A stretch of DNA of 64,000 nt from Thermomicrobiales bacterium (GCA_042408955.1 JBHOQQ010000172.1:12798-76797); one strand, 5' to 3'. Positions 5,390 through 64,000 are shown, counted from the first letter of the stretch. Translations and numbers: made by a program. Notes: a model not told the origin generated them from the letters alone.

Positions 5390-6324
5390 TCGACGTTCTG
5401 CTGCTTGGCACGGGTGGAATGATCCCTCTTCCGAACCGGTGGCTGTCTGCCCTGCTTGTCCGGAGCGGTGGGGAGCTTGTGCTGTTTGACTGCGGCGAAG
5501 GTACACAAATTCCCTGGCGGATGTTCGGCTGGGGATTTCGCCGCCTATCGGTCATCTGCTTGTCTCACTGGCACGCCGACCATGTTGCCGGGTTGCCAGG
5601 ATTGATGCACGCGGTGGCGAACGCCGGTCGAACTGAGCCGATGCGCATTTACGGCCCACCTGAGACGCGCCGCGTTGTGTCTGGCCTCCGGCAGATCGCC
5701 CCTGTGCTTCCCTATCCGGTCGAGGTGATCGAGCTTGAAGGGGGTGCGTCGTTTGCCTTGCCGGGCGGTTGCCGAGCCAGCACCCTCTGGGGAGAGCACC
5801 ATGTGCCGTGCTTGGCCTATCGCGTGGATCGGCCTCGCGCCCCGCGCTTCGATGCGGCACGTGCGCTTGAGCTCGGTATCCCCGTTCAACTCTGGCGCCG
5901 GTTGCAAAACGGCGAAGCGGTGAGATGGGAGGGTGGCTACGCGGAGCCGGCTCAGGTGCTCGGGCCACCACGGCGCGGCATCGCCTTTGCCTATGTCACC
6001 GATACGCGCCCGGTGCCAGATCTCGTACCGTTTGTGGCTGGGGTCGATCTGCTCGTCTGCGAAGGCACCTACGGCAGCTCCGGCGACCTGCCGAAGGCAA
6101 TTCAGCATCAGCACATGACCTTTGCCGAGGCAGCGACGCTGGCGAGAGAAGCAGGCGCCGGGCAGCTCTGGCTGACGCATTTCAGCCCGTCGCTCGACAC
6201 GCCGGAGCAGTTCGCCGATGAGGCGGCAGCGATCTTCGCACGCGTGACCATCGGCTGGTCAGGACTGACGATGACGCTGAGCTATGAGCACGACGCGATT
6301 GAATCTGCTGGCCGCTCTGCATGA
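5386..6324 (+). CDS. rnz: Ribonuclease Z (MBL-fold tRNA 3' endonuclease)
   Basis: MIDVLLLGTGGMIPLPNRWLSALLV...LFDCGEGTQ...LSHWHADHVAGLPGL (HxHxDH motif)...THFSP. Confidence 0.85.
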   Translation: MIDVLLLGTGGMIPLPNRWLSALLVRSGGELVLFDCGEGTQIPWRMFGWGFRRLSVICLSHWHADHVAGLPGLMHAVANAGRTEPMRIYGPPETRRVVSGLRQIAPVLPYPVEVIELEGGASFALPGGCRASTLWGEHHVPCLAYRVDRPRAPRFDAARALELGIPVQLWRRLQNGEAVRWEGGYAEPAQVLGPPRRGIAFAYVTDTRPVPDLVPFVAGVDLLVCEGTYGSSGDLPKAIQHQHMTFAEAATLAREAGAGQLWLTHFSPSLDTPEQFADEAAAIFARVTIGWSGLTMTLSYEHDAIESAGRSA

Positions 6325-6672
6325 CGCTGGCGCGGGATCCTTCGCGCCGAGGGTCGGAAGGTGTGACCGGTTGAACCGGGCGCAGGGTGCGCAACGCTCC
6401 TGCCGGATGCGCGCCTAGCGACCTGCTCCCTCGCTACCATCGGGGCAAGGCTCAGGCAAGGGAGCCGGCGAAAGCCGGCTGCTCTGCTGGGGGAGAGAGA
6501 TCCCGTGCTGCGCACTCCTGCGCGATCGCGAACAGAATGCCAGATCGAGCCCCCTTCAGGGGGATTCGTTGTGCTCAGCGCGGGGACTTTAGTCTTGCGC
6601 GATGCCGGAGGTGCGCCCGCACTTGCGCGGGCCGAAAGACCCGCGCTCAACATACAAATCGCAAGGCCCGCG
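6325..6672. repeat. Mosaic cluster of GC-rich stem-loop repeats, including an inverted copy (6489-6543) of the ~47-nt unit seen at 58638-58684
   Basis: Hairpins: GGCGCG-N8-CGCGCC (6329-6348), CCGGT-TGA-ACCGG (6367-6379), AGCCGGC-GAAA-GCCGGCT (6463-6480), CCCCC-TTCA-GGGGG (6550-6563), GCGCGGG-N8-CCCGCGC (6625-6646). The same modules recur at 37441-37680 and 58788-58877. Confidence 0.75.
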
Positions 6673-8040
6673 CTACGCACCCGGGCTCGCTTCAGTATCG
6701 AGTGCTTGCTCGATGAACGCCCGAATAGCGTCAAGATCGCCCGTGTACACCCACCGTCCATCCTCGATGAATCCGCCTTGGAGCAATGGCTCACCGAGCG
6801 TGGTCAACCTAATGTCGTCCCGCTCAAACTCGCGGGCGAGGCGGGCCAGAGTCAACTGCTCTTCGAGTTGGAAGCTTGTTTGGACGGCATCGCCCACCGC
6901 AAGGATGATCTCATCCGCGCGAGTGACCGAGCGAAAGCTCTTGCCCTTATCAAAGATGGCTAGGAGCACATCGAGCTGTCGCTCGCGCCGGGCATCATCG
7001 CTATCAGCGTGGCGCGTGCGCACGTATTTCAGTGCCCGGTCGCCGTCCATGTGTTGCCGGCCAGGAGCAAATTCCACAACTTCAGTCCCGTAATCCTCGG
7101 TTGGGTACTGATCGTCATGAATCAGGTAGGGCACGTCAACCTCGATGCCGCCAAGGGCGTCGACCACGGTCTTGAAACCGTTGAAATCCACGAGGACATA
7201 GTGATCAATGGGCACGCGGAAAACTTGCTCGACCGTGTCGCGCACTTTCACGACGCCGGCAACGGGGTCGTCTGGCTTAGCTTGGTGGCCGTAGTTGTAG
7301 GAGCTATTGATCTTATCTGGTCCGAGGCCGGGAATTTCGACAAGCAGGTCGCGCGGAATGCTGACCGCGGCGAGCCGGCGATGAACGAGATCAAGGTGGG
7401 CCAAGATAATGACGTCCGCGTTCTGGTCGCCTCCATCCGGCCTGCGGTCCACACCAATGACGAGAATGTACAGGTCGGTTTTGCCCTGCCAAACAGCCGA
7501 GTGGGATGGATCGCCGTCGGCCATGCTCGCTTCGACGATGCGGCGCACAACATCCAAGCGCGAGGGCGAATCCGACTTGGCAGGTGGGCGAGCTGTCGGC
7601 GTAGGCGAGGGCGCAGAATTGACACGGGTCGCCGCTAGCGATTGGTCCGGTGCCTGCGTTGGTCTGTCTGGCGTGCGCTCATCCGTTGCGCTTGGGCCTA
7701 CCGTTGAGAAGGTGGTTGGCTGAGGCGTGGGTGATGGCGCAAGCGCGGCCGTTGCGGCCGGAGTGGTGGTCGCCTCGTTGCCGATGGTAAAGGCGACCTC
7801 GGTCTCTCGCGTCGGCAGGGGGACCACAGCAGCCTGCTCGGCATCGACGATGGCACTGACCACACGCCAGCTCTGAATGCCGAGCGCAACAACGGCCAAT
7901 GCCAAGACAAAGCCAACCGCGAGGGCGGGGCGACGCCGTCCGGAGCGCAGCGCGGGTCGAGGCGAGTTGTGCGGGGTCCTCTCGGGCGCAGCCGGAGGTG
8001 GCTCTGGATATGAGATGGCTTCTTCCTCCCTTCCTGGCAT
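6673..8040 (-). CDS. LytR-CpsA-Psr (LCP) family cell-envelope phosphotransferase
   Basis: N-terminal TM segment (ALAVGFVLALAVVALGI), a Pro/Thr-rich linker, then the LCP core ILVIGVDRRPDGGDQNADVIILAHLD...AVSIPRDL...KINSSYNYG...RTRHADSDDARRERQ. The ORF caller start at 8118 is TTG; I prefer ATG 8040. Confidence 0.85.
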   Translation of the reverse strand: MPGREEEAISYPEPPPAAPERTPHNSPRPALRSGRRRPALAVGFVLALAVVALGIQSWRVVSAIVDAEQAAVVPLPTRETEVAFTIGNEATTTPAATAALAPSPTPQPTTFSTVGPSATDERTPDRPTQAPDQSLAATRVNSAPSPTPTARPPAKSDSPSRLDVVRRIVEASMADGDPSHSAVWQGKTDLYILVIGVDRRPDGGDQNADVIILAHLDLVHRRLAAVSIPRDLLVEIPGLGPDKINSSYNYGHQAKPDDPVAGVVKVRDTVEQVFRVPIDHYVLVDFNGFKTVVDALGGIEVDVPYLIHDDQYPTEDYGTEVVEFAPGRQHMDGDRALKYVRTRHADSDDARRERQLDVLLAIFDKGKSFRSVTRADEIILAVGDAVQTSFQLEEQLTLARLAREFERDDIRLTTLGEPLLQGGFIEDGRWVYTGDLDAIRAFIEQALDTEASPGA

Positions 8041-8261
8041 GCAACATCGCCTGGATGCGGATGTGGGCACCTGCCGGGGTCGGGGCGCACCAGCGCATAG
8101 TTTACTTGGTGCAGTCAAGGACGGTCAGCATACTACCCGCTGGGGAACGCATGGCGCGTGCCACACGCCTCGTCATTTTTCGAGAGAATGCTGCTAGGAT
8201 GACGCACCAGCGGGGAAGGGCAGCGTCGGGAGGAAGCATTGCATACACACGGGAGTGGCAA

Positions 8262-10004
8262 ATGAGCGATCAGGTCGGGGTGCCAGTTCCGGGCGTGCCA
8301 GGGGTGGTCGTCGAGCGGAATGTTCCGTGTCGTGTCCGCGATGGGACGGTGCTGAGGGCTGATGTCTACCGGCCAGCGGGCACAGGGCCGTTCCCCGTGA
8401 TTCTCATTCGCTTGCCATACGATAAGACGCAGGCAGAGAATGTCGCTTACAGTCACCCATCATGGTACGCCCGCCACGGATACATCGTTGTCTGCCAAGA
8501 CACCCGGGGCCGCTATGCATCGGAGGGTGAGTGGTACCCCTTCCTCCACGAGGCGGAGGATGGCTACGACACGATCGAATGGGCGGCACGGTTGCCAGGA
8601 GCAAATGGGAAGGTCGGGATGTATGGGTTCTCCTATGCTGGAGCGACCCAGCTACTCCCCGCTGTGCTCCGGCCGCCGAGTCTGGTGACAATCTGCCCAG
8701 TGATGACCGGGTCGCAATATTACGAGGGCTGGACCTACAACCAGGGGGCGTTTGCGCTGGCGTTTGCGGCCTCTTGGGCGCTCAGCCTGGGCATTAACAA
8801 CGCCCAGCGGCGCGGTGATGATGAGGCAGTGCGGTCTTATTCCACGGCGTTCGCCAGCGCTCTCTCTTGGGATTGGTATCTACCGCTGAAGGATTTCCCA
8901 CCGCTGCGTGGACCCGATACCGCGTATTTCTTCGACTGGCTCGCCCATCCCACCTACGACGAGTATTGGCGACGCTGGAGCATTGACGAAGACTACAGCC
9001 GCATCACGACTCCCGCGCTTCACATCGCTGGTTGGTATGACATCTTTCTCAGTGGCACCGTGGCCAACTTCAAGGGTTTGCGCCGCTACGCTGGCACCGA
9101 AGAGGCACGCCGGGGACAGAAGCTGATCATTGGCCCCTGGTATCACATTCCTTGGCGGCCATTGGTTGGCAACGTCTCGGACAACGCGTCACCGAGTGTC
9201 ATAGACGATTGGCAATTGGCCTGGTTCGATCAATTCTTGAAGGGGAATTGGACCGGCGTGCTGGACTCGCCCGTCACGGTGTTTATCCTCGGCGAGGACC
9301 GGTGGCATGATGTGGACGATTGGCCACCGCCGCAGGCAACGCCGACCGCTTGGTATGTCCATTCGCGCGGGCGCGCCAATTCCGTATTCGGTGATGGCAC
9401 CCTCTCTCTCGATCCGCCATTAGATGAGCCAGCCGACGTGTTTACCTACGATCCCACCGTTCCCAATCTGAGCCAAGGAGGGCATTCCTGCTGCTTCCCT
9501 TGGGTGGCACCCATGGGTCCGGCCGATCAGGCGCCGAGTGAGCAATGGAACAGTGTCCTGGTGTACACCAGCGACCCGCTGACCGAAGACCTCGTGCTGC
9601 TCGGCGACGTGACCGTCCGGGTATTTGCCGCGACCACTGCCGCTGACACCGACTGGACCGCGCGCCTGTGCCGCGTCGATCCCAGCGGTGTCTCGATCAA
9701 TCTTCAGGAAGGGATCGTCCGGGCGCGCTATCGTACGTCCACCGTCCGCGGCGAGCCGATTCAGCCCAATCAAGTCTACGAGTATGAGATTCTTCTTGGG
9801 CCTGTGGGTGTTCGCATTCCCGCGGGACACCGATTGCGCCTGACCATTTCGAGCAGCGATTTTCCCCAGTGGGATCGCAATTTGAACACCGGTGGGGAGC
9901 TTGGAGCCGAAGGACCATCGCGAGCCGTGGTGGCAACTCAGACCGTGCTCCACGATGCCGCACATCCCACGCGGGTCATCCTGCCGGTCGTCCGGGAGCT
10001 GTGA
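8262..10004 (+). CDS. CocE/NonD family hydrolase (S15 X-Pro dipeptidyl-peptidase-like)
   Basis: VRDGTVLRADVYRP...PVILIRLPYDK..., nucleophile motif GMYGFSYAG, and a C-terminal jelly-roll segment ending LTISSSDFPQWDRNLNTG. The ORF opens at 7899; ATG 8262 is preceded by GGGAG. Confidence 0.85.
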   Translation: MSDQVGVPVPGVPGVVVERNVPCRVRDGTVLRADVYRPAGTGPFPVILIRLPYDKTQAENVAYSHPSWYARHGYIVVCQDTRGRYASEGEWYPFLHEAEDGYDTIEWAARLPGANGKVGMYGFSYAGATQLLPAVLRPPSLVTICPVMTGSQYYEGWTYNQGAFALAFAASWALSLGINNAQRRGDDEAVRSYSTAFASALSWDWYLPLKDFPPLRGPDTAYFFDWLAHPTYDEYWRRWSIDEDYSRITTPALHIAGWYDIFLSGTVANFKGLRRYAGTEEARRGQKLIIGPWYHIPWRPLVGNVSDNASPSVIDDWQLAWFDQFLKGNWTGVLDSPVTVFILGEDRWHDVDDWPPPQATPTAWYVHSRGRANSVFGDGTLSLDPPLDEPADVFTYDPTVPNLSQGGHSCCFPWVAPMGPADQAPSEQWNSVLVYTSDPLTEDLVLLGDVTVRVFAATTAADTDWTARLCRVDPSGVSINLQEGIVRARYRTSTVRGEPIQPNQVYEYEILLGPVGVRIPAGHRLRLTISSSDFPQWDRNLNTGGELGAEGPSRAVVATQTVLHDAAHPTRVILPVVREL

Positions 10005-10942
10005 TGACGATGCGAGTTGCGCGCAGTATCTTGTCGGTTCCAGCCTCATCGCTGCGCATGATCGAAAAAGCGCTTGCGAGCGAGGCAGATATCGTCTTTC
10101 TCGATCTTGAGGATGCCGTTGCTCCGGCAGAGAAGGCCGCGGCGCGGGCGAATGTGATCGCGGCGATGCGGGATCTGGACTGGCGGGGAAGGCCGCGCGT
10201 GTACCGGATCAACGGCCTCGACACTCCCTTTTGCTATCGCGACCTCATCGAGATCATCGAGGGTAGTGAGGGGAGGGCCGATCTCGTCATCGTGCCGAAG
10301 GTAGGCCGTCCTGAAGATGTCGTCGTGGTTGCAACCCTACTGGGTCAACTCGAAATGGCGACCGGCACGGCGCGGCGGATTGGCATCGAAGCGCAGATAG
10401 AATCGGCCTCGGGCCTCCTCGCCTGCGAGCGCATCGCAACGGCTGGTGATCGCCTGGAAGCGTTGATATTTGGTCCTGGGGATTTCGCGGCCACCATTGG
10501 TATGCCAAGCAGTGCGATCGGCACTCCTGATGATTGGGATGCCCGGTATCCAGCACACCGCTGGCACTACGCGATGGCGCGGATTGTGGTCGCGGCTCGG
10601 GCAGGAGGGTTGCGCGCCATTGATGGGCCGTATGCGGATATTCGTGATCTAGACGGGCTGAGGCGCTCCTGTGAACTCGCGCGTGCGCTGGGCTTTGATG
10701 GCAAGTGGTGTATCCACCCGGCGCAGATCCCCATTGTCAACGAGGTGTTCACGCCGACCGAGGCGGAGCAAGCGTGGGCACGGCGCGTCCTCGCTGCTTA
10801 CGAAGAGGCGACGGCCGCGGGACGTGGCGCCATCACGGTTGATGGGAAGATGATCGATGCCGCGAACGTGCGCATGGCCCAGCGGACGCTTGCCATGGCC
10901 AGTGGCAGGGATGTGGCTGGAGAGCAAGTCTCCAACGCTTGA
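10004..10942 (+). CDS. HpcH/HpaI aldolase / citrate-lyase beta (CitE)-like acyl-CoA lyase
   Basis: RSILSVPASSLRMIEKALASEADIVFLDLEDAVAP...RINGLDTPFCYRDL...VIVPKV. The ATG overlaps the upstream TGA (GTGATGA). Confidence 0.85.
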   Translation: MTMRVARSILSVPASSLRMIEKALASEADIVFLDLEDAVAPAEKAAARANVIAAMRDLDWRGRPRVYRINGLDTPFCYRDLIEIIEGSEGRADLVIVPKVGRPEDVVVVATLLGQLEMATGTARRIGIEAQIESASGLLACERIATAGDRLEALIFGPGDFAATIGMPSSAIGTPDDWDARYPAHRWHYAMARIVVAARAGGLRAIDGPYADIRDLDGLRRSCELARALGFDGKWCIHPAQIPIVNEVFTPTEAEQAWARRVLAAYEEATAAGRGAITVDGKMIDAANVRMAQRTLAMASGRDVAGEQVSNA

Positions 10943-10948
10943 GACGGA

Positions 10949-11767: not shown

Positions 11768-11834
11768 GGTCGTGTGATCTCCTTTCTCGCCGCGTCATGC
11801 TCCGCTCGACACCAGGGAGCCGATGGCCCCTGCG

Positions 11835-19928: not shown

Positions 19929-20064
19929 GAGCTAGCCCTCACGCGTGATACTCATGGCACCGGGCTGGCATCGGCGCTCGCGCACGTCCTCCACGGGCTA
20001 GCCGTCCGTGTCGCGCCCGCCTTGCTCATCACGACTGAACCCGGTGCCGGTCATCGAGTCCGTG

Positions 20065-38545: not shown

Positions 38546-38577
38546 TTGGCGCTCCTCGCCAGACCAATTGCTCCTCA

Positions 38578-39225: not shown

Positions 39226-39240
39226 ATCGGCCTCCGTCGC

Positions 39241-45248: not shown

Positions 45249-45493
45249 AGCTTCTCCTCCTTGGAGACCACTCTCGTCCTCCGCGGTTCGGGCTTGCTGC
45301 TGGCCCGGCCGCCCTCTGCTGACGATCGTACGGCAGCGGCGCTGCGCGAATGTCAAGAAACGGTCAACTCCTTGCAAGATCACCGTGCTCAACCTCGCTT
45401 CCGCTAGCTTGACGAGGAAAACAGAAGCTGCCAGCATGACCGATTGTGTCGCCCGGAACCGCGCGGGCGCGAAGGAACAAACGACGGAGAAGC

Positions 45494-48205: not shown

Positions 48206-48225
48206 GGAGACGTTGAGCAACGCTC

Positions 48226-51426: not shown

Positions 51427-51435
51427 GGGGAGGAG

Positions 51436-53829
51436 GTGCGCGTGGCATCGGTACTGGTATCTCGCTGCCCAAGGTGTGTTCTGCGGCTGCTCCTGGCTAC
51501 CCTGCTCATTGCCCTGAACCTGCTCGCGCGGCCAGCGGTTGAGCCGGCGGGTGCGGCAGACGCACTCGCGCCCGCGGAAGTCGCTGAGGCAGCTTCTGCC
51601 GCACTGTTCGAGGCGCAAACTCGCCTCCTGGCCGGAGACGCTGAAGGATCGGCAGCGAAGGCTCTGGAGGCAGAGCAGGTCGCTGCGCCGCTGGTGGCAG
51701 CATTCGCGCCGGTGCCTGAAGACCAGGCTGCATTGATCGAGGCGCTCGCGGCAGCGCGGGAGGCAGCGGCGCGGGAGGATGGAGCGGCGCTCGCCGCCGC
51801 TCGCGGTCAGGCACGGACCGCCATGCTCCGGGGAAGCTTTGCCTTGACCCTGGCGAACGTGCAGGCCGGTGATGCCAGAGCGGCCCAGCAATGGCTCCTG
51901 CTCCGGGAGTTTCGGCCAGCGACGCGCTTTGCCCGGCCGAATGCCGATGGCACCCTCGCGCTCCAGCGCCTGACGACCGGCGCGCTCGATCCAGCAGCCG
52001 CTGTGCAGGCGGTGCGCGCTGATCTGCTCGACACCTACCAAGCCAAACTTGACGAAGCGCTGGATGCGATCAGCGATGCTGCCAGCCAGGGATATGCCCT
52101 GAAGCTGGCCGAAGCAGGGGCGCTGGCGCAGGGCTACTGGCACATCCTTTCCCCTGCCTACGCCGGGCAAGCGGGAGAACAAGCGGGCGCCAGCGCGGAC
52201 GCGCTGTTTGCTGAGATCGCCAGGGCCACGCTCGCGAGCGATAGCGGGCGCATTTCGCCGCTGCTCGATCGGGCGCGCCAGCTTAACGCTAGCTTCCGGG
52301 CTGCTCCCCTTTCATTGGAGGAGCAGCAGCGCCGGGCCGGCCAACTGCTGCTGTACCTCTCGCTGGTACCCGTTGAATATGGGCGTGGTGTCAAGGACGG
52401 AGCGGTGCTCGTGCCGATCGAGGTGCAGGAGGCCCGGACCTTCTTCGACGGCGCCGAGGCTGCCTTCCGTGATCTCCGTTCGACGCTGCAAAGCCGCAAC
52501 GCTGCCGCCACGGAGCGCGTGAGCGGCTTGCTCGCCCAGCTTGATCAGGCGCTCGCCGGCACGCAGACCGGCACTCAGGTCGCAGATCCCGAGCAGGTCG
52601 CGTCGGTAGCCTCCGAGACGGCCATGGCGCTGCGCGATCTGTTTCCACGCGAGTGGCTTCAGCGGAGCGGCGCAGCCGATTTTGATGTGATTCGGACACT
52701 GCTCGACCAAATGGAGCGAGCAGCCGCTGGCCGCCAGTTCAAGCAGGCGGAATCGGCACGGCTGGAAGCGTACGCGATCTTCGACGCAGGACCGGAAAAG
52801 CGCCTGCTTGGTTTCTCTCCACGGCTCGCGCAGCGCATCGAGCGACTGTTCTGGGGCGGTGACGGATCGTACGAGGGTTTGGCAGACGCGCTTGCGCGTG
52901 GCACATCCGGGAATGAGCTTCGGAAAACCCGTCTAGCGTTGGACGACGCGCTAAGCCAGGCCGAGAGCCTGCTCGGCGGTGGCAAGCCAGCGACCGGCGC
53001 GATCATCTTCAACGCGGCGACCATCGTTTTCCGCGAGGGGCTGGAGGCTGTGCTGATCCTCGCCTCACTGCTGGCGAGCATGGTTGGCGCGCATCGTCAT
53101 CTCAAGCGGCCACTCGTGTTCGGTGCGCTGGCGGCACTCGGCGCTTCCGGCATGCTCTTCGTCCTCGCGCGCTCCGTCCTGCTGTCCCTAGCGCGGTATT
53201 CGGAAAAGATCGAGGCTGTCGTCTCGCTGCTCGCAATCAGTGTGCTTCTCCTCGTGATGAACTGGTTCTTCCATAAAGTGTATTGGACGCGGTGGATCGC
53301 CCAGCACCATGCACGACGGCGGGCACTCATCGGCGGGGTGGCTGGGCAGATGCTCGGCCTGGCAACACTCGGGTTCACCAGTGTCTTCCGGGAAGGAGCG
53401 GAGACGGTCCTCTTCCTGCAAGCACTCGTGCTTGACGCAGGCACCGCGACGGTGATCGAGGGCACGGCGCTCGGCTTACTCGGCGTGGCCGCGATCGGGG
53501 CGCTGACGTTTATCGCCCAGGCCAAGCTGCCGCACAAGAAGATGCTGATCGTCACTGGCCTGCTCATCGCGACCGTGCTCGTGACGATGGTGGGGAACAC
53601 CATGCACGCCCTGCAGGCCGTGGGCTGGGCTCCGGTGACTCCGCTTGGAGAGATCGCAGTCCCGAATTGGGCGAATGTCTGGCTCGGCATCCACGCGACC
53701 TGGGAAGGTGTGGTCGCGCAGGTCGTCGCAATCGGGTTCGTTCTGGGCAGCTATGTCGTTGCCGAGCAACGCCGAGCGCGCTCACGCCAGGCGCGGCTGG
53801 CGCGCACGGCCGTGGCTGCTCAGGACTGA
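51436..53829 (+). CDS. FTR1/EfeU-family high-affinity iron permease fused to a ~520-aa N-terminal helical domain
   Basis: Two RExxE motifs in TM helices: VFREGLEAVLIL (REGLE at nt 53032-53046) and VFREGAETVLFL (53389-53403). N-terminal anchor LRLLLATLLIALNLL, then about 500 aa of Ala/Leu/Glu-rich sequence. GGGGGAGGAGG lies directly upstream of the GTG. Confidence 0.8.
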   Translation: MRVASVLVSRCPRCVLRLLLATLLIALNLLARPAVEPAGAADALAPAEVAEAASAALFEAQTRLLAGDAEGSAAKALEAEQVAAPLVAAFAPVPEDQAALIEALAAAREAAAREDGAALAAARGQARTAMLRGSFALTLANVQAGDARAAQQWLLLREFRPATRFARPNADGTLALQRLTTGALDPAAAVQAVRADLLDTYQAKLDEALDAISDAASQGYALKLAEAGALAQGYWHILSPAYAGQAGEQAGASADALFAEIARATLASDSGRISPLLDRARQLNASFRAAPLSLEEQQRRAGQLLLYLSLVPVEYGRGVKDGAVLVPIEVQEARTFFDGAEAAFRDLRSTLQSRNAAATERVSGLLAQLDQALAGTQTGTQVADPEQVASVASETAMALRDLFPREWLQRSGAADFDVIRTLLDQMERAAAGRQFKQAESARLEAYAIFDAGPEKRLLGFSPRLAQRIERLFWGGDGSYEGLADALARGTSGNELRKTRLALDDALSQAESLLGGGKPATGAIIFNAATIVFREGLEAVLILASLLASMVGAHRHLKRPLVFGALAALGASGMLFVLARSVLLSLARYSEKIEAVVSLLAISVLLLVMNWFFHKVYWTRWIAQHHARRRALIGGVAGQMLGLATLGFTSVFREGAETVLFLQALVLDAGTATVIEGTALGLLGVAAIGALTFIAQAKLPHKKMLIVTGLLIATVLVTMVGNTMHALQAVGWAPVTPLGEIAVPNWANVWLGIHATWEGVVAQVVAIGFVLGSYVVAEQRRARSRQARLARTAVAAQD

Positions 53830-53907
53830 GACAACACAGGAAATGGGTTCGGGACATCCCGGGCGGTCCGGGATGGGGAACAGAGCCGTCGTAGGAAAGG
53901 AGTAACG

Positions 53908-55056
53908 ATGCACGATTGGATGAGCCACCACGGATCGAGCAACGAAGAGGAGAGGGCGATGCTGCGGCGCCTGAGCCGCCGGCGCGTCCTCCGCGAGGGG
54001 AGTGCGCTTGGGCTCGCACTCTTTGCTGCTGGGGGCTCGCTCCGGCATGTGGCCGCCACGTCGGAGGTGGAGGAGGAGACTCCCGAGTCGGAGCCCACAC
54101 CCGCTGGGGGAACTCCGGTTGGCTCCGCGGGCACCGTCACGATCTACTCCGGTCGTAACGAGCGGCTCATCGGCGATCTCGTGGCGCAGTTTGAGCGGGC
54201 GACAGGCATTGATGCCGAGGTGCGCTACGGCGACACCGCCGAGCTTGCGGCGACCATTCTCGAGGAGGGGGAGAACAGCCCAGCCGATCTGTTTTGGGCT
54301 CAAGATGCCGGAGCGCTCGGCGCGGTCGCCCGGGAAGACCGCCTTGCTGCGCTCCCGGACGAACTGCTTCAGCGCGTGGACGCCCGGTTTCACTCCAAGC
54401 AAGGGGTCTGGGTGGGAACCTCGGGCCGAGCGCGCGTCCTGGTCTACAACACCGAGCAACTGACCGAAGCGGATCTCCCGGCATCGGTCCTCGATCTTGT
54501 GGATGCCAAGTGGAAGGGCAAGATCGGCTGGGCGCCGACCAATGGCTCGTTCCAATCGTTTGTCACGGCGCTTCGGGTCTTGCGCGGCGACGATGCGGCG
54601 CGCGCCTGGCTTGAGGGCATCAAAGCGAACGAGCCGGTGGTGTTCGAAGGCAATGCTCCGATCGTTCGCGCCGTCGGAGCCGGCGAGATCGCTGTTGGGT
54701 TGGTCAATCACTACTATCTCTATGAGATCAAGGAAGAGGAGGGTGAGGATTTCCCAGCCGCCAACCACTTCTTCGCCCCTGGCGATCCGGGCAATCTCGT
54801 CAATGTGGCCGGAGTTGGTATCCTTCGGACAGCAAAGCACGCTGAGCAGGCGCTTCGCTTCGCGGACTACCTGCTTGGCCGGGAAGGGCAGGGGTATTTC
54901 GCCGAGCGCACCTTCGAGTACCCGCTGATCGAAGGCGTGAAGCCACGCGCGGATTTGGTCCCGCTCGACGAGATTCAAGGACCGGAGATCGATCTGAGCG
55001 ATCTTGCCGATCTGCAAGGCACGCTCCAGCTTCTCACTGAGGCGGGAGTTATTTAG
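53908..55056 (+). CDS. Fe(3+) ABC transporter substrate-binding protein (FbpA/AfuA-like), Tat-type signal
   Basis: LRRLSRRRVLREGSALGLALFAAGG; TIYSGRNERLIGDLVAQFERATGI...DLFWAQDAGALG...GTSGRARVLVYN...NHYYLYE. AAAGGAG sits before the ATG. Confidence 0.85.
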   Translation: MHDWMSHHGSSNEEERAMLRRLSRRRVLREGSALGLALFAAGGSLRHVAATSEVEEETPESEPTPAGGTPVGSAGTVTIYSGRNERLIGDLVAQFERATGIDAEVRYGDTAELAATILEEGENSPADLFWAQDAGALGAVAREDRLAALPDELLQRVDARFHSKQGVWVGTSGRARVLVYNTEQLTEADLPASVLDLVDAKWKGKIGWAPTNGSFQSFVTALRVLRGDDAARAWLEGIKANEPVVFEGNAPIVRAVGAGEIAVGLVNHYYLYEIKEEEGEDFPAANHFFAPGDPGNLVNVAGVGILRTAKHAEQALRFADYLLGREGQGYFAERTFEYPLIEGVKPRADLVPLDEIQGPEIDLSDLADLQGTLQLLTEAGVI

Positions 55057-55069
55057 GACGAGGGTTACT

Positions 55070-56761
55070 GTGCTCACGCTCCGTCCCCGCGCGGCGCGCG
55101 TGCCAATTCATTCGGGTCAGGGAACGCCGGCAAGCGTGGCCCCACGGCGCTTGGCTGCCGTCACCCGGCGGAGGAGCGTGAGCAGCCCCCCGGTCGTTGT
55201 CCTCGTTCCAGCCTTGCTGGTGGCCGCGGTCACGCTGGTGCCGATTCTGTACCTCATCCTTCGTGCCTCGGAGGCGGGCGGTGGAATTTGGCACTTGCTC
55301 TGGCGCGAACGAACGGCCTACGTGCTCAAGAACACGGTGATGCTGGCCGCTGGCGTGTCGCTTGCCGCCTCCGCGATTGCCGTGCCGATGGCCTGGCTCA
55401 CCACTCGCGCGGACCTTCCAGGCCGGCGGTTCTGGGCAACCATCGCTCCCTTGCCACTCGTGATTCCCTCCTACGTTGGCGCATTGACGATCGTGGCAGC
55501 CCTTGGTCCGCGCGGCTTCCTGCAGAGCGCGCTTGAACGGCCCTTTGGGATTGAGCGCCTGCCTGAGATTTATGGATTCTGGGGAGCCTGGCTCACTCTG
55601 ACGTTGTTTACCTATCCGTATGTACTGCTGAGCGTGCGAGCGGCCCTGCGCGGGCTCGATCCATCGCTCGATGAGGCTGCGCGATGCCTCGGCCATGGCG
55701 CGTGGCGCACGTTCTTTTTCACCACGCTTCCCCAATTGCGGCCCGCGGTGATTGCTGGAGCCTTGCTGGCAGCGCTGTATTCCATCAGCGATTTCGGCGT
55801 GGTGACCCTTCTTCGGTACGATGCCTTCACTCGCGAAATCTATGTCCAGTATCGCGCTTCCTTTGATCGCACGCTCGCGGCCGCGCTCGCTCTCGTGCTC
55901 GTGTGCTTTGCCCTCGTGTTGCTTGCCATCGAATCGCGCGTTCGCGGACGCGCCGCTTACCACCGCCTTGGCTCGGGCGCCGCGCGGCGGGCGCGCCCGG
56001 TACCGCTCGGCGCCTGGCGATATCCCGCACTAGCATTCTGCGGCGTGGTCATCGCGCTCGCGCTTGGGCTGCCGCTGGGCGTCCTCAGCTACTGGCTGAT
56101 CCGCGCGCTGCGGCGTGGCGATGAGCCAGAGACCCTGCTGACGGCGGCACAGCACTCGGTAACCGTGAGCTTTGCAGCGGCTGTCGTCACGACGCTCGCA
56201 GCACTCCCGGTCGCGATCCTTATCGTTCGGTACCGCACGCGCCTGAGCCAGTGGATCGAGCGCGTCAGTTATGCTGGCTACGGTCTACCCGGCATCGTGG
56301 TTGCACTGTCGTTCGTGTTCCTCGGCGCGCGATACCTCACTCCGCTCTACCAGACGCTGGCGCTCCTGATCGTCGCTTATACGGTACGCTTCCTTCCGCA
56401 GGCGATCGCCGCGGTGCGAGGCTCGCTGCTCCAAGTGAGTCCACGCCTGGAGGAGGCAGCCCGAAATCTCGGGCGCTCGCCGTTCGGCGCGATCCAGAGC
56501 GTGACCATTCCGCTGTCTGGGCCGGGTATCGCCGCCGGCGCGGCATTGGTCTTTTTGACCGTGATGAAGGAGTTGCCGATGACGTTGCTCCTGAGCCCCA
56601 CGGGCTACAAGACCCTGGCCACGACTGTCTGGACGGCCGCTGGGAATGGCGCGTTTGGCGAAGCGGCGGCTCCAGCCCTGGCACTCGTGGCCGTCTCGGC
56701 CGTCCCGATGTTGCTGCTGGCCACGAGGGAGCGCGGCGAAGCACCGCGAGGCGACGAGTGA
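55070..56761 (+). CDS. Fe(3+) ABC transporter permease (two-module FbpB-like)
   Basis: Duplicated permease modules with EAA-like loops (DPSLDEAARCLGHGAWRTFFFTTLPQLRP and SPRLEEAARNLGRSPFGAIQSVTIP). The GTG 55070 start is assumed. Confidence 0.85.
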   Translation: MLTLRPRAARVPIHSGQGTPASVAPRRLAAVTRRRSVSSPPVVVLVPALLVAAVTLVPILYLILRASEAGGGIWHLLWRERTAYVLKNTVMLAAGVSLAASAIAVPMAWLTTRADLPGRRFWATIAPLPLVIPSYVGALTIVAALGPRGFLQSALERPFGIERLPEIYGFWGAWLTLTLFTYPYVLLSVRAALRGLDPSLDEAARCLGHGAWRTFFFTTLPQLRPAVIAGALLAALYSISDFGVVTLLRYDAFTREIYVQYRASFDRTLAAALALVLVCFALVLLAIESRVRGRAAYHRLGSGAARRARPVPLGAWRYPALAFCGVVIALALGLPLGVLSYWLIRALRRGDEPETLLTAAQHSVTVSFAAAVVTTLAALPVAILIVRYRTRLSQWIERVSYAGYGLPGIVVALSFVFLGARYLTPLYQTLALLIVAYTVRFLPQAIAAVRGSLLQVSPRLEEAARNLGRSPFGAIQSVTIPLSGPGIAAGAALVFLTVMKELPMTLLLSPTGYKTLATTVWTAAGNGAFGEAAAPALALVAVSAVPMLLLATRERGEAPRGDE

Positions 56762-56837
56762 TGAACGCCGATCTGACAGCGATCCACGCATGAGCGCTAG
56801 GCGCCAGTACGCGACCGCATAGTGACCATAGGTTGCC

Positions 56838-57917
56838 GTGACTCATCAACGCATTCCTGAATCTCCTCCGGCTCTCAAGTGCACGGGTATCGTCAAGCGA
56901 TATGGCGCCGTGACCGCCGTTGCCGGCGTAGATCTCGTTGCCGAGCGTAGCGAGGTGGTTGCACTACTTGGCCCGTCCGGCTGCGGAAAGACCACCACGC
57001 TGCGCCTCATCGCCGGGTTTGAAGATCTCGATGCCGGAACGATTGAGATTGGCGGCCGCATCGTCGCCACGCCAGATTGGCGCGAGCCGCCGGAGCGCCG
57101 CCGTGTCGGCATGGTGTTTCAGGATGGAGCGCTCTTTCCTCATCTCTCGGTCTTCAAGAACGTGGCGTTCGGTCTACCTCGAAGTGAGGACCGTGCGGCG
57201 AAAGTCCGCGCTGCGCTGGAGATGGTCGGTCTGACCGGCTACGAGGACCGCATGCCCTTCGAGCTTTCCGGAGGTCAGCAACAGCGTGTGGCACTCGCCC
57301 GCGCGCTCGCGCCATCCCCGGAGGTCATTCTGCTCGATGAGCCGTTCTCAAGCCTGGACGCCGAGCTACGCGCTAGCGTCCGGGCGGAAGTGCGCCAGAT
57401 TCTCTCGGAAGCCGGCGCGACGGCGATCCTCGTGACCCACGATCAAGAAGAGGCGCTCAGCATCTCGGATCGCGTGGCGGTCATGTGGCAGGGCCGCATC
57501 GTGCAGCAAGCGTCGCCAGAAGAGCTCTATCACCGGCCGATTAGCAGGGAAATCGCGGTGTTCGTGGGCGACGCCCAGTTCATCCCTGGCGAGGGCATGG
57601 GGCGCCGTGTGGTGACAGAGCTCGGCGAGCTGCCTGTGCATGGCACCGCGCACGGCCCCGTTGACGTCATGCTCCGTCCGGAGGCGCTCCGGCTGATTCC
57701 AGCGACAGATGGGCAAGAGCCCAACGCGACCGTCCTGACGCGCCTCTTTTACGGACATGACCAACTCATGACCGTGCGCCTTGACACCGGGCGCATCGTG
57801 AAAGCGCGACTAGGCACCTATGGCGGCATCCGGCCTGGCGACCGCGTCCATGTCAGCGTTCGTGGCGCGGCGCTTACCTTCCCGCGTGAGGATGGTTCAT
57901 GCGCGTCGAAATCGTGA
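56838..57917 (+). CDS. Fe(3+)/polyamine-type ABC transporter ATP-binding protein (FbpC-like)
   Basis: [43 protein letters not shown], and a C-terminal TOBE-like region. Confidence 0.9.
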   Translation: MTHQRIPESPPALKCTGIVKRYGAVTAVAGVDLVAERSEVVALLGPSGCGKTTTLRLIAGFEDLDAGTIEIGGRIVATPDWREPPERRRVGMVFQDGALFPHLSVFKNVAFGLPRSEDRAAKVRAALEMVGLTGYEDRMPFELSGGQQQRVALARALAPSPEVILLDEPFSSLDAELRASVRAEVRQILSEAGATAILVTHDQEEALSISDRVAVMWQGRIVQQASPEELYHRPISREIAVFVGDAQFIPGEGMGRRVVTELGELPVHGTAHGPVDVMLRPEALRLIPATDGQEPNATVLTRLFYGHDQLMTVRLDTGRIVKARLGTYGGIRPGDRVHVSVRGAALTFPREDGSCASKS

Positions 57918-60419: not shown

Positions 60420-60839
60420 CTACCAACGCAGCAGTCGCGTCGGCCGGATGCGGATTGCTTGGGAATAGTCCGCTACCATCGCGCTCGGCTCCCACTGCAT
60501 TTCCCGCAGAAGCGCAGCGTATTTGTCGAAATAGGGACCGAGGGGCAGCGTCGAGGCTGGCTCCGGCAACAGCGTGGCCTCGCCTTCAAGGATGATGACA
60601 TCGTGGCCGTCGTTCGTGTTGTCGAGGGCGACGCTCACGTGAGGTTGAGCCCGTAGGTTACGGATTTTCTGCGTGTTGGGTTGACTCAGCACGAGGAGAG
60701 ATTCACCATCCCAAAAGAACCAGACGGGAACAATGTGCGGCCTGCCATCGGGACGAACCGACGTGAACCACAAGATGAGGTCGCGACGCAAGCGCTCATC
60801 CACATGTGCCTGGCCTGGCGTGTGATCCAGAATCGGCAT
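60420..60839 (-). CDS. Pyridoxamine-5'-phosphate-oxidase-fold (PPOX/F420- or FMN-binding) family protein
   Basis: ...ILWFTSVRPDGRPHIVPVWFFWDGESLLVLSQPNTQKIRNLRAQPHVSVALD...VIILEGEATL. Start is ATG 60839 or 60878. Confidence 0.7.
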   Translation of the reverse strand: MPILDHTPGQAHVDERLRRDLILWFTSVRPDGRPHIVPVWFFWDGESLLVLSQPNTQKIRNLRAQPHVSVALDNTNDGHDVIILEGEATLLPEPASTLPLGPYFDKYAALLREMQWEPSAMVADYSQAIRIRPTRLLRW

Positions 60840-60967
60840 GGATAGCCCCCGTACGAGATTGCGGGTTTCGTGAGCCATAACCGCTGAGCGGGCGCCCAAA
60901 GCCATCCGCCCCGCGATCTCCCTCCCGGGCGGATGGGAAAGCGACGGGTAACTCAAGAGATAGGTGC

Positions 60968-63900
60968 TTAGCTTCCCCAGTCGACGTCGTAAAACCCGCT
61001 GCCGTCGCCAGACATTTCGATGGCGCAGCCATCGTAGCCGCCGAATCCACCTTGTCCGCTCGTCGCGGTGCCATTGACGGCTACAGCACAGCCGCCATCG
61101 CCGAAATCGCCGCCATTGCCGCCCGTGGCGTTGCCGTTGATTGCGGTTGCATCGCCGCCGCGTCCGCCCGATGCGCTGCCATCGGACACGCCAGGATTGC
61201 CGCCGTTCCCGCCGGTGGCGTTCCCGTTGATGGCAGTCGCGTTGCCCCCGTTGCCGCCGCTGCCGGTGGTGGAGCCGCTACTCGCGGCAGTGGCTCCGGC
61301 GCCGCCAGTCGCGACTCCGCCATTGCCGCCGTTGCCGCCCGTGGCGTTGCCGTTGACCGCGTAGGCGTCGCCGCCCGCGCCGCCATTCCCGCCAACCGCT
61401 TCGGCGCCGGTCGCGTTACCGCCGTCACCGCCATTGCCGCCCGTGGCATCGCCCCCGTTCGCCTCGGCGTTACCGCCGCGCCCACCATCGCCGCCGACCG
61501 CGGAGCCTCCGAACGCTGCACCGCCGTCGCCACCGTTGCCACCGACCGCGTTCCCACCAAGAATGACACCCTCACCACCGGTGGCATTGCCGCCGGCACC
61601 ACCCGCGCCCCCGCGGGTGGTATCCGTGACATCACCGGAGAAGGTGCACGAGGCACCGATGACCGGAGCCGGTCCTGCGCCAAGCGCAGACACGAGCCCG
61701 TTGAGATCGCAGGAACTTGTCAGCGTGTTGGCGTCGAATGCGCCGCCGCCATTGCCGCCGTGGCCACCCGTGGCATTTCCACCGATCAGCCCAAAGCCGC
61801 CCTTAGCGTTCCCACCGGTGCCGCCGTTCCCGCCAATGGTGAGGTCGCCGCCATTGTTCCCGGCCGATAGCGTGCCGGAGTAGCCAATGGTGTAGACACC
61901 AATATCGATGGCGCTGCCGCCCCCGGTACCGTCTCCTCCGAAGGCATCACCGCCGTTGCCAAGCTGGCCCTCTTCCACCACGCCAAGGAAAACGTTGCCC
62001 GAGGTGGCGATTCCATTGGCCGAACCGCCCTGCGTGGCGACGCCGTCAGCCGCTGTGCCCGGCGTGCCAACGCCGTTCGAGGCGTTCCCATTCTGGTGAG
62101 GTGTGGTGATGATGTTCGAGGTGGCAGTTCCAGGCGTGTCTCCTGTGCCACCGCTGACCGCTCCGGGGTTGACAGTGCCTGACGCCGCTCCGGCGCTGCC
62201 TGTGCCACCGACACCCGCGCCTGCGGTTCCCCGCGCGCCGCCGGTGCCAGCACCGCCAGTGCCAGTTCCGGCCGTCACCGTGCCGAGGGTAAAAGTGCCC
62301 TCGGTGTATGAGCCACCGGTGCCCCCGTCCCCGCCAATCGCATCGCCGCCCGCGCCACCATCACCACCGCGCGTGACATCGTTGGCGCTGCCCGACGCAG
62401 CGATACTCCCGCTCCCGCCGCTGACCTGAACGCCGATAGTAATGGCCGAGCCGCCGGCACCGCCATTTCCGCCGCGAGCGGTCCCACCATTGCCGCCGTC
62501 GCCGCCAATCGCATCGCCGGCATAGATGTTACCGCCCGTGGCATTGCCGCCCTGGCCGAAACCTCCAGTCCCCGCGCCGCCAATCGCGTTCCCGCCGGTG
62601 CCTGGCCCACCGGATCCGTCGCCGCCGATGTTTCCATTGGCGACCAGATTTACCGCCCCATTGCCGCCAGTGCTGCCCGTGCCTGTCGCATTTCCACCGA
62701 GACCAAACCCGGCTGCAACATTGCCGGACGCACTCCCGCCGGTGCCGTTCCCGCCAACGCCGCGTCCAGCGGTACCTGCGTTGCCTCCGGTTCCAGCGCC
62801 ACCTTGCCCGGCGCCGCCAGCCACATCACCGCCAGTCACATCCGCCTGATTGGCGAGACCGCCGGTTCCCCCAATGCCGCCGAAGCCGTTCCCGCCGGTG
62901 CCGCCGGTGCCCCCAATCACAATGTTGCCACCGACCGTGACGATCGTGACTGTACCATCGACTGTCTTGAGCGACACGGCAATATCCTTGGCGAGTCCGC
63001 CGGTGCCACCCGTGCCACCCTGGCCAGTGCCGCCGGTGCCACCCGCACCCCCGAAGGCGTCACCACCGTAGCTATCGCCACCGGTAGCGTTGCCGCCGGT
63101 GCCTGTGCCGCCTATTCCCGCGCCACCGAGCGAATCACCGCCGATTCCCGCCCCGCCACTGCCGTCTCCGCCGGCGTTGGCGTTATGCACGGTAGTCGCG
63201 GTGCCATTGCCGCCGATGCTGCTGGCACCGATGGCGAGACCACCCTGCCCGGTGCCACCGGTGGTATTGCCGCTCGCGTTGCCGCCGGTGCCATCACCAC
63301 CTAGGCCGTTGCCGCCATTCCCAGCGTTTCCGCCAATCCCCGCGCCGCCAGTGCCATTTCCGCCAGCAACATCACCGCCGAAGACATCGCCAGGGTTGGC
63401 TTCTCCGCCAGTGCCACCCGTCCCGCCGATACCGTCGCCACCAGTGCCACCATTCCCACCGAGGACGATGTTGCTCGCCTCGACGGAGATGGTCACGTCA
63501 CCGGTGTGATCTTTCACTGTCACCGTGACGGCCGTGGCATTACCACCGGCGCCACCTGCTCCGCCGTTGCCGGTGCCTCCTGTGCCGCCGTCGCCGCCGG
63601 TCGCGTTGCCGCCGATCGTCGTGCCGCCAGTCGCATAACCACCCCAGCCATCGCCGCCCATTCCGGCGCCGCCGAGTGAGTCACCGCCAGCGCCGGTGCC
63701 ACCCCGGCCACCGCCGCCTGCGTTGCCGCCGCCGGTGGTCGCACTCACTCCGTCACCAGCGGCTGCTCCCGCGCCGCTCACGTTTCCGCCGGTCGCCGTA
63801 CCACCGGTGGTATTGCCAGAGGCAGCGCCTCCCCGGCCGTCACCACCGATACCCGTGCCACCGTTGCCCGCCAGGCCGCCACGGCCCACGCCGCCTGTCC

Positions 63901-64000
63901 CATTCCCACCAATGACCGGGCCACCGAGCGTCAGGCCGCCATCGGCTGAGCCTCCGGTGCCACCAATCCCTCCAGTTCCAGTCCCTCCAGATCCGCCGTC
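60968..64000 (-). CDS. Giant glycine-rich (GGxGGxGG) tandem-repeat protein, more than 1010 aa, N-terminus beyond window edge
   Basis: One minus-strand frame is open from nt 64000 to TAA at 60968-60970. Gly is about 50% (31 of 60 in a counted stretch). A ~182-aa super-repeat is present. Every other frame over the region is broken by stops. Confidence 0.8.
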   Translation of the reverse strand, partial: DGGSGGTGTGGIGGTGGSADGGLTLGGPVIGGNGTGGVGRGGLAGNGGTGIGGDGRGGAASGNTTGGTATGGNVSGAGAAAGDGVSATTGGGNAGGGGRGGTGAGGDSLGGAGMGGDGWGGYATGGTTIGGNATGGDGGTGGTGNGGAGGAGGNATAVTVTVKDHTGDVTISVEASNIVLGGNGGTGGDGIGGTGGTGGEANPGDVFGGDVAGGNGTGGAGIGGNAGNGGNGLGGDGTGGNASGNTTGGTGQGGLAIGASSIGGNGTATTVHNANAGGDGSGGAGIGGDSLGGAGIGGTGTGGNATGGDSYGGDAFGGAGGTGGTGQGGTGGTGGLAKDIAVSLKTVDGTVTIVTVGGNIVIGGTGGTGGNGFGGIGGTGGLANQADVTGGDVAGGAGQGGAGTGGNAGTAGRGVGGNGTGGSASGNVAAGFGLGGNATGTGSTGGNGAVNLVANGNIGGDGSGGPGTGGNAIGGAGTGGFGQGGNATGGNIYAGDAIGGDGGNGGTARGGNGGAGGSAITIGVQVSGGSGSIAASGSANDVTRGGDGGAGGDAIGGDGGTGGSYTEGTFTLGTVTAGTGTGGAGTGGARGTAGAGVGGTGSAGAASGTVNPGAVSGGTGDTPGTATSNIITTPHQNGNASNGVGTPGTAADGVATQGGSANGIATSGNVFLGVVEEGQLGNGGDAFGGDGTGGGSAIDIGVYTIGYSGTLSAGNNGGDLTIGGNGGTGGNAKGGFGLIGGNATGGHGGNGGGAFDANTLTSSCDLNGLVSALGAGPAPVIGASCTFSGDVTDTTRGGAGGAGGNATGGEGVILGGNAVGGNGGDGGAAFGGSAVGGDGGRGGNAEANGGDATGGNGGDGGNATGAEAVGGNGGAGGDAYAVNGNATGGNGGNGGVATGGAGATAASSGSTTGSGGNGGNATAINGNATGGNGGNPGVSDGSASGGRGGDATAINGNATGGNGGDFGDGGCAVAVNGTATSGQGGFGGYDGCAIEMSGDGSGFYDVDWGS

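Follow-up and report, generated by a model that had tools for sequence, protein, structure and literature searches.

The 64,000-nucleotide stretch of Thermomicrobiales bacterium DNA analysed here (GCA_042408955.1, JBHOQQ010000172.1:12798-76797; hereafter the window) carries at its far edge part of a gene for a giant glycine-rich protein. The window holds the last 1010 codons of this gene, whose product of ~1,300 residues has a distinctive architecture: GG pentads are arranged in a residue-exact module of 182 residues, the modules form a stable array, and a conserved, cysteine-bearing module closes the chain. Secreted glycine-rich repeat proteins have precedents; this family is without detectable relatives in curated resources. 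Judging from its sequence and that of its orthologues, we give about an even chance to the protein being a Sec-exported, lineage-specific structural or surface protein, whose glycine-packed modules would form an extended acidic scaffold presenting a disulfide-stabilised C-terminal binding module. The export and the modular scaffold are by far the more secure parts of this reading, compared with a polyglycine-II (PGII) fold and a binding role.

A single minus-strand frame runs from the window edge at 64000 to a TAA at 60968-60970, with 1010 sense codons and zero internal stops, as a preliminary description of this DNA had stated; the remaining five frames of the region contain 6–26 stops each. 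The GTG at 63889, already regarded there as an arbitrary start, is indeed so, as the frame stays open for 37 codons ahead of it. When the conserved extreme C-terminus was aligned and used to scan metagenomes, a single locus was recovered, L011 (metagenome contig ERZ777003 NODE-108, 161 kb), which contains a complete orthologous open reading frame (ORF) of 1325 residues (L011:6224-10198). The part of the gene found in the window is thus supported by its open frame and by homology to L011:

60968..64000, minus strand: glycine-rich protein gene, 3' part (1010 codons plus TAA).

The window protein and the L011 orthologue are 72% identical over 1007 aligned residues, with one 3-residue indel. Codon-position identity between the two is 0.80 at position 1, 0.83 at position 2 and 0.44 at position 3, and the codons differ by 385 synonymous-only and 282 non-synonymous changes. 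Given these position-specific identities, the minus-strand frame codes and is under purifying selection. By homology, ~318 further codons would lie beyond the window edge, specifying a predicted signal peptide, the N-terminal region and one more repeat unit. The presence of the same architecture, with codon-level purifying selection, on an independent metagenome contig also bears out the earlier view that the array is not a collapsed or duplicated assembly artefact. Promoter and terminator scans at the 3' end of the gene and at the L011 5' end gave nothing useful.

The repeat array consists of three good units and a degenerate fourth one, numbered W0 to W3 in the window and preceded by M for the units of the L011 orthologue, each unit having a Gly-poor segment at or near its end:

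63455..64000, minus strand: unit W0, 182 residues (in-window residues 1-182), defined by register and identities; 64% identical to L011 unit M1.
63455-63529, minus strand: Gly-poor, strand-like segment ending W0, VTVTVKDHTGDVTISVEASNIVLGG.
62909..63454, minus strand: unit W1, 182 residues; 61% identical to W0, 59% to W2 and 65% to the orthologous M2.
62909-62983, minus strand: Gly-poor segment ending W1, IAVSLKTVDGTVTIVTVGGNIVIGG.
62363..62908, minus strand: unit W2, 182 residues; 52-59% identical to W0/W1 and 70% to the orthologous M3.
62363-62443, minus strand: Gly-poor segment ending W2, ITIGVQVSGGSGSIAASGSANDVTRGG.
61817..62362, minus strand: degenerate fourth unit W3; 28-30% identical to the others in fixed register, 40% when aligned in register.
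61829-61912, minus strand: Gly-poor segment of W3, AIDIGVYTIGYSGTLSAGNNGGDLTIGG.

The diverged 182-residue super-repeat of the preliminary description is clearly visible in the autocorrelation of the protein, in which the fraction of identical residues at lag 182 reaches 0.39 over the whole chain and 0.50 over residues 1-720, against ~0.23 at other lags. Units 0, 1 and 2 are mutually 52–61% identical, in exact register and without any indel, and 56 glycine columns are invariant across seven units. Each module comprises runs of GG-x-x-x pentads, short (GGx)2GG blocks and one Gly-poor, strand-like segment of 25–28 residues, and W3 also holds a Gly-poor stretch rich in T, P and N. The four Gly-poor segments lie exactly where they had first been placed, at residues 121, 303, 483 and 660 counted from the GTG (nucleotides 63529, 62983, 62443 and 61912). 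Among the landmark motifs reported to recur at an offset of 182 residues between consecutive units, GGDSLGGAG, GGDVAGG and GGDGSGG do so exactly, and GGNATGG does so between units 1 and 2.

Adjacent units are ~58% identical at the DNA level, with third codon positions near saturation: identity is 69–74% at codon positions 1 and 2 and 31–34% at position 3, which indicates that the unit duplications are old and that the protein sequence has been maintained since. Orthologous units (64–70%) are closer to each other than paralogous units within a protein (43–61%), so that no concerted evolution or homogenisation is apparent. Because neighbouring units share only ~58% of their DNA sequence, the array is a poor substrate for homologous recombination. 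The proposal that the repeats are a likely hotspot of recombinational length variation is therefore contradicted at short range, where a single 3-residue indel separates the window protein from that of L011. Two further, more distant orthologues are encoded by L012 and L013, the contigs of the database entries P0001 and P0002, which are both syntenic with L011. The L012 orthologue is colinear with that of L011 and ~185 residues shorter, or about one unit, so that unit number does change over deeper divergence.

Glycine accounts for 40.1% of the protein (43.6% in units 0-2, 34% in unit 3 and 37% in the C-terminal module), not the about 50% initially estimated; only local 60-residue windows reach 57% (34/60 in the densest), and the earlier count of 31/60 in residues 141-200 from the GTG is exact. 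Within the units, successive GG pairs are spaced by 5 residues in 45 cases and by 3 residues in 24, and the main micro-repeat is therefore a pentapeptide with the consensus GG-[D/N/T/A]-[G/A/S]-x. Compared with shuffled sequences, GGxxxGG is found 57 times (9.5 ± 3.0 expected), double pentads 30 times (0.6 expected) and GGxGGxGG 21 times (1.4 expected), none of these 21 blocks being extended by a fourth GG. GGxGGxGG had been taken for a main building motif; it turns out to be a minority pattern, the pentads dominating by 57 to 21. Regarding the rest of the composition, Ala makes up 12%, Pro 1% and large hydrophobic residues ~14%, the chain is strongly acidic (D+E 60 vs K+R 14), and D or N directly follows GG in 19 of the 45 pentads. 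N-x-S/T sequons are ~2-fold enriched in 60971-64000 (minus strand), with 22 against 12.2 ± 3.1 expected (z 3.2-4.8), and are mostly NAT or NGT. An N-glycosylation role was not adopted, only 8 of the 22 being kept as sequons in the orthologue, and the sequons are better regarded as a turn motif than as places of conserved glycosylation.

The array is followed by a C-terminal module with its own features:

60971..61816, minus strand: C-terminal module, 282 residues, the most conserved part of the protein and distinct from the units.
61646..61711, minus strand: first Cys pair, C764...C785 (numbered in the window frame, as are all cysteines here), SSCDLNGLVSALGAGPAPVIGASCTF, both Cys kept in L011.
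61025..61090, minus strand: second Cys pair, C971...C992, GDGGCAVAVNGTATSGQGGFGGYDGCAIE, conserved.
60971..61168, minus strand: extreme C-terminal signature GGFGGYDGC-x-[VI]-E-...-G-x-Y-[DE]-V-x-W-G, shared with L011, L012, L013 and the database entry P0007.

In this module, (GGx)2GG blocks alternate with short linkers containing A, V, I, F or Y, and the motif A-[IV]-N-G-N-A-T-G-G-N-G-G recurs; part of it reads GGNGGDGG-AAF-GGSAVGGDGGRGG-NAEAN-GGDATGGNGGDGG-NATGAEAV-... The two Cys pairs and the terminal ...GFYDVDWGS of the preliminary description are both present. Each pair spans 21 residues, all four cysteines are conserved in L011, and equivalents of the first pair can be seen in the translated L012 and L013 sequences; this pair flanks the only stretch of the mature protein that is mildly hydrophobic. 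The extreme C-terminal signature is also found in the entry P0004, in a more divergent form (alignment A1). Between the window protein and the L011 orthologue, 95% of the glycines and 100% of the cysteines are conserved, compared with 42–69% for the other residue types with at least 15 occurrences, and apart from the 3-residue indel the length is held to the residue. Non-Gly identity rises along the chain, from 0.43 in units 0-2 to 0.59 in unit 3 and 0.77 in the C-terminal module, with 0.84 in residues 820-1001. This rise, and the fact that the terminal signature is the part common to the more distant matches, suggest that the C-terminal module is the functional end of the protein.

The L011 orthologue starts with MKRMHSTLVVLTALLAAMSVLITTPTLA/AGS, ~6 nt downstream of a strong Shine-Dalgarno sequence, AAGGGGAGGGA, and the L013 orthologue has a signal peptide of the form ...AAVLSFFLATALLAPGVHA/EDIG; signal peptides also begin the divergent Gly-rich paralogues of L011 and L012. 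These assignments were made by inspection and hydropathy (KD19 2.06). The examination of the N-terminus for a secretion signal that had been proposed for this protein, carried out on the L011 orthologue, gives a predicted Sec signal peptide. No transmembrane-like segment is found in the mature protein, in which the highest Kyte-Doolittle 19-residue mean is 1.38. The lack of an LPxTG motif or hydrophobic anchor was confirmed, and as to sortase, exosortase, S-layer homology (SLH) and type IX secretion anchors, the C-terminus likewise lacks a hydrophobic segment and neither Pfam nor NCBIfam gives a match. Sec export of the family is well supported by the predicted signal peptides of orthologues and paralogues, by a mature protein devoid of transmembrane or sorting signals and by the conservation of all four cysteines; for the window copy, it would follow from the orthologues. 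The extracytoplasmic location suggested at the outset is backed by the same signal peptides and by the fully conserved Cys pairs.

At least four related genomes carry members of the family, which protein databases cover poorly. Neither Pfam nor NCBIfam matches the window protein at E≤1, nor does Pfam match the full-length L011 orthologue at E≤0.01. Searches of PDB sequences with the window protein or with a 14-row unit profile (E≤10 for the profile) gave no real match, and a match to a shikimate dehydrogenase (E 0.03) was rejected as compositional. No match was obtained by tblastn against phage and plasmid collections, a homology search with the least repetitive 200 residues against the protein collection returned 0 matches, which shows that the protein is missing from it, and tblastn of one unit against L012 without composition correction gave only compositional noise against the paralogue. 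An exhaustive HMMER (phmmer) scan of 1.84 billion representative proteins, whose composition correction may hide purely compositional similarity, yielded seven weak, fragmentary matches at E≤1e-3, all of them singleton or two-member clusters and five of them aligning to the C-terminal module. The best two, P0001 and P0002, align to the C-terminal half of W2 and the start of the next unit, and are chimeric calls in which homologous in-frame stretches alternate with Arg-rich out-of-frame text. P0004 and P0007 are fragments bearing the terminal signature GGFGGYDGC-x-V-E...G-x-Y-D-V-x-W-G, and the short proteins P0003, P0005 and P0006, exported and with a signal peptide or a DUF4352 domain, resemble the C-terminal module in their GGNAxGGNGGDGG-type tails. 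Membership in an already characterised repeat family, a point raised in the preliminary description, was therefore looked for in Pfam, NCBIfam, PDB and the HMMER scan, and none was found. The L012 (~8333-11736, plus strand) and L013 (~8340-11768, plus strand) orthologues show about seven reading-frame hops in 3.4 kb, which we attribute to homopolymer errors in G-runs of long-read assemblies. The names of both contigs resemble long-read assembler output.

Based on these features, the modules would fold into a compact, glycine-packed scaffold, most likely made of stacked short helices of PGII or polyproline-II (PPII) type joined by polar turns of 2–4 residues, like those of PGRS domains, of snow-flea antifreeze proteins and of phage gp38, with the strand-like Gly-poor segments capping or joining successive modules. 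Outside the cell, the result would be an acidic rod or sheet, extended and protease-poor, which may serve as a spacer presenting the disulfide-stabilised C-terminal module, and this module would be the binding part, directed to the cell envelope, a partner protein or a substrate. Overall, the protein would be a lineage-specific structural component of the cell surface or extracellular matrix, and not an enzyme or a toxin. The residue-exact register, the near-invariant glycines and the capping of triplet blocks at three GG favour a defined three-dimensional structure over a disordered linker. We infer the PGII-type fold from the composition and the connectors rich in N, T, D, A and S, which are compatible with PGII/PPII bundles. 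In solved PPII bundles the interior is made of Gly, and the short turns are enriched in Gly, Asn, Thr, Cys and Pro (bioRxiv 10.1101/2023.11.25.568672); in the "sail" model of PGRS domains, helices of 3–4 triplets have one edge of short, hydrophobic-containing loops (PMC9436101), a layout that the C-terminal module resembles.

Several points weigh against this reading. The 5-residue glycine period is atypical, the canonical PGII period being 3 residues, and strict Gly-x-x runs do not exceed 7 triplets. No homology to any solved PGII protein was found in the PDB sequence and unit-profile searches. AlphaFold2 gave a mean predicted local distance difference test score (pLDDT) of 26 for the whole 1010 residues as a single sequence and of 37 for one 182-residue unit with a very shallow, 8-row alignment, values that are uninformative rather than negative. 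The signal peptide of the window copy is taken from the orthologues, its own N-terminus being beyond the edge, and no anchor motif was found, so that the protein may be either attached to the surface or released. Finally, the L012 and L013 copies are frame-disrupted, and gene decay there is the alternative to assembly error.

The low AlphaFold scores (26–37) and the very low sequence complexity would also suit an intrinsically disordered, elastomeric matrix protein of silk type, in which the pentads would be beta-turn "springs", the GGx runs loose 3(1) helices and the spacers elements of cross-linking or strength, the whole forming a hydrogel or fibre. The protein is predicted to be secreted and is without an enzymatic domain, and its succession of pentapeptide run, GGx run and Gly-poor spacer mirrors by analogy that of flagelliform silk (PMC6168590). 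This interpretation, to which we give roughly one chance in five, conflicts with several observations: the pentads have no Pro (GPGGx has 0 occurrences and Pro is 1% overall), the register is exact and indel-free with nearly all glycines conserved, both disulfide pairs are conserved, and each unit is conserved with its own orthologue and not homogenised, unlike silk- or elastin-type repeats or typical disordered regions.

Somewhat less probable, and in our opinion doubtful, is a Ca2+-dependent beta-roll or beta-solenoid adhesin of a new repeat type, in which the D/N residues after GG would ligate Ca2+ as in RTX proteins and the chain would fold outside the cell. The acidity of the protein and the frequency of D/N after GG are in its favour, there are 7 matches to GGxGxD (3.3 expected) and 3 to the full RTX nonapeptide (0.5 expected), and the Gly-poor segments are strand-like and the sole part to reach an AlphaFold pLDDT of 50–70. 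However, there is no 9-residue period, the lag-9 autocorrelation of 0.218 being at background, and HemolysinCabind, like every other Pfam family, is absent at the thresholds given above. The orthologues have a predicted Sec signal rather than a C-terminal type I secretion system (T1SS) signal, no T1SS genes lie nearby, the neighbours being importer-type ABC systems and housekeeping genes, and the large hydrophobic residues are too few to provide the inward-facing side chains of a solenoid core.

A divergent or horizontally acquired relative of the mycobacterial PE_PGRS proteins, as the similar composition and the GGx blocks with N/D/A might suggest, is very improbable. Its C-terminal layout of blocks and hydrophobic linkers does resemble the published description of PGRS (PMC9436101). 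Nevertheless, none of the seven HMMER matches is PE_PGRS-like, the L011 orthologue has no PE domain (PF00934) and starts with a predicted Sec signal peptide rather than a PE/ESX signal, the dominant repeat is the pentad, and the neighbouring genes point to Chloroflexota-like organisms and not to Actinomycetota. GGxGGxGGxGG runs are typical of PGRS and have 0 occurrences here. Membership in the PE_PGRS family appears effectively refuted by these sequence comparisons. The reported lack of PE, RTX or collagen signatures was confirmed by Pfam and NCBIfam, by motif counts and by the L011 orthologue. Three other known repeats were considered and rejected: a collagen-like triple helix (longest strict G-x-x run of 7 triplets, Pro 1%), PPE-MPTR/Pentapeptide_2 (NxGxGNxG 0 occurrences, no Pfam match) and the pentapeptide-repeat A[D/N]LXX of the Rfr fold (no Pfam match at E≤1; in GG-[DNTA]-[GAS]-x, x is hydrophobic in some pentads only).

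The least tenable alternative is that there is no real protein, the frame being open by chance in GC-rich repeat DNA or shadowing a gene of the opposite strand: GGN-rich DNA does keep several frames open, and the antisense frame has 6 stops in the window and 0 in L011, but the sense frame is the sole one stop-free in both, it is 72% conserved against 38% for the antisense frame, it alone shows the low third-position identity, the L011 orthologue starts with a Shine-Dalgarno site and a signal peptide, and such a non-coding artefact is already refuted by the codon-level evidence. The antisense shadow ORF of L011 encodes 1453 residues (6206..10567, minus strand) and is longer than the true gene of 1325, which could explain the absence of the L011 protein from protein collections. 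In the window, plus-strand ORFs lie antisense to the gene at 61052..61870, 62804..63304 and 63090..63509.

Returning to the exported glycine-packed scaffold, a more ambitious form of this reading, which we hold only tentatively, is that the protein is the founding member of an undescribed extracellular class, in which a strict 182-residue GG-pentad super-repeat would fold as a new type of PGII-like modular rod or sheet. The class would be restricted to a small lineage, probably of Chloroflexota. Protein databases would mostly miss it, since GGN-rich DNA is handled badly by gene callers and long-read assemblies, through antisense shadow ORFs and frameshifts; the family is nearly missing from a 15-billion-protein collection, although four or more syntenic loci exist.

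Around the gene lies a conserved set of genes for other exported proteins. The syntenic order is Cupin (with SH3_3), BNR-like, the Gly-rich gene, and then shikimate dehydrogenase, YceG and MiaA. In L011, L012 and L013, the Gly-rich gene is preceded by Cupin+SH3_3, DUF4352-like and BNR-like genes and by a second Gly-rich giant, and in L011 it is followed by the orthologue of the solute-binding-protein gene of the window. The second giant lies upstream and is divergently oriented (L011 3..1367, minus strand; L012 3..4742, minus strand); it has at least 1580 residues in L012, 34% Gly, its own signal peptide, no Pfam match and a distinct Cys-containing super-repeat, ...EGC...GGDASCG... As this second protein has its own signal peptide, the locus would encode a pair of exported Gly-rich proteins. 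Small exported proteins with a DUF4352-like Ig-type domain and a GGNAxGGNGGDGG-type tail are encoded at L011 3729-4397 (plus strand) and by P0005, P0006 and P0008. In the window, a PNPOx-family gene (60420-60956, minus strand) stands between the Gly-rich and solute-binding-protein genes; L011 lacks it at that position and has the other two genes side by side, a minor difference in gene content between close relatives, and the terminator scan found no terminator-like site between it and the Gly-rich gene. Its closest relatives in a GTDB scan are from Ktedonobacteria and Thermomicrobiales metagenome-assembled genomes (≤56% identity), so that either this genome is missing from the representatives or the gene is strain-specific. 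PhoX of the window shares 55% identity with plasmid-borne copies of Meiothermus and Thermomicrobium roseum (tblastn), an uninformative tie. A Chloroflexota-like host is plausible from these gene relationships.

The rest of the window is ordinary chromosome, with aroA, histidine kinases, ABC importers, FTR1/imelysin and PhoX. The region 50293-57917 contains an iron-uptake-looking cluster of an imelysin (Peptidase_M75), an FTR1-family permease and an ABC importer (solute-binding protein, permease and ATPase), the FTR1-family permease being 797 residues long with a long Ala-rich N-terminal extension. The PhoX alkaline phosphatase (43263-45641, minus strand) has a Tat-like RRDLLRGGAA motif, and the long N-terminal extension of the listed ORF is probably spurious. 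A 652-residue ORF at 21909-23867 (plus strand) has no Pfam match, overlaps the end of an SBP_bac_5 gene on the other strand and may be spurious. Outliers of AT skew are the 2-kb windows 18001-20000 (+0.20), 38001-40000 (+0.15), 48001-50000 (-0.17) and 54001-56000 (-0.18).

To our knowledge, folded Gly-rich PPII/PGII assemblies are a small, recently recognised class of about six solved families, and among large natural arrays such a fold has so far been proposed only for the mycobacterial PGRS domains, whose structure is experimentally unsolved. A single 182-residue unit of the protein described here could be a tractable target for how long glycine scaffolds fold, because it is a residue-exact module of a family that is evolutionarily stable, predicted to be Sec-exported and unrelated to PGRS, and it may interest structural biologists working on PGII assemblies. 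The family may also point to an envelope or matrix component of a poorly studied bacterial lineage. GGN-rich genes are probably under-annotated, since the few entries of this family are chimeric, frame-hopping calls despite the number of syntenic loci.

Flagelliform silk is composed of GPGGX runs, GGX runs and a conserved spacer (PMC6168590). The two proteins have in common a three-part module, repeated along a very large secreted chain whose ends are non-repetitive. They differ in that the window pentads are without proline, in that the modules are of 182 residues, diverged and each closest to its orthologue, and in the bacterial host, so the similarity is an architectural analogy only, not homology. 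RTX proteins (GGxGxDxUx) are likewise rich in Gly, Asp and Asn, acidic and extracellular, and a few literal GGxGxD occur in the window protein, which differs from them by the lack of a nonapeptide period or Pfam match and by its predicted Sec rather than T1SS export. The only detectable relatives of the C-terminal module are the DUF4352/signal-peptide proteins P0003, P0005 and P0006/P0008 from metagenomes (E 1e-8 to 1e-4, 47–57% over 100-155 residues), which are predicted to be exported, like the window protein; they are uncharacterised proteins of 187–328 residues without the 182-residue units or the ...YDGC...YDVDWG signature.

The closest resemblance in overall plan is to the PGRS domains, predicted to be PGII "sail" sandwiches (PMC9436101). 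Both are large, surface-directed proteins with ~40–50% Gly, short GGx blocks (x = N/D/A/T), hydrophobic-containing loops, a distinct C-terminal module after the repeats and no hydrophobic core. They have no detectable homology, and the window family would be Sec-exported rather than guided by a PE domain and ESX-5; its period is 5 and not 3, its triplets are capped at three GG and its super-repeat is strictly of 182 residues. PGRS domains are described as polymorphic, whereas the window repeats are stable, without homogenisation, and the PGRS host is Mycobacterium, whereas the host here appears Chloroflexota-like. The solved PPII/PGII bundles are those of the snow-flea antifreeze proteins (3BOG, 7JJV), phage S16 gp38 (6F45), the Obg N-domain (1LNZ) and the Gly-rich domain of ALK (bioRxiv 10.1101/2023.11.25.568672). 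In contrast to arrays of >1,000 residues, they are single domains of 6–14 helices (~80-150 residues), and none matches the unit profile in sequence, PGII geometry in the window protein being a prediction. As in the window protein, they are made of Gly and small polar residues with short connectors rich in N, T and G, their Gly positions are extremely conserved and their exposed positions vary, and the snow-flea antifreeze proteins and gp38 share with it the disulfides and the extracellular setting.

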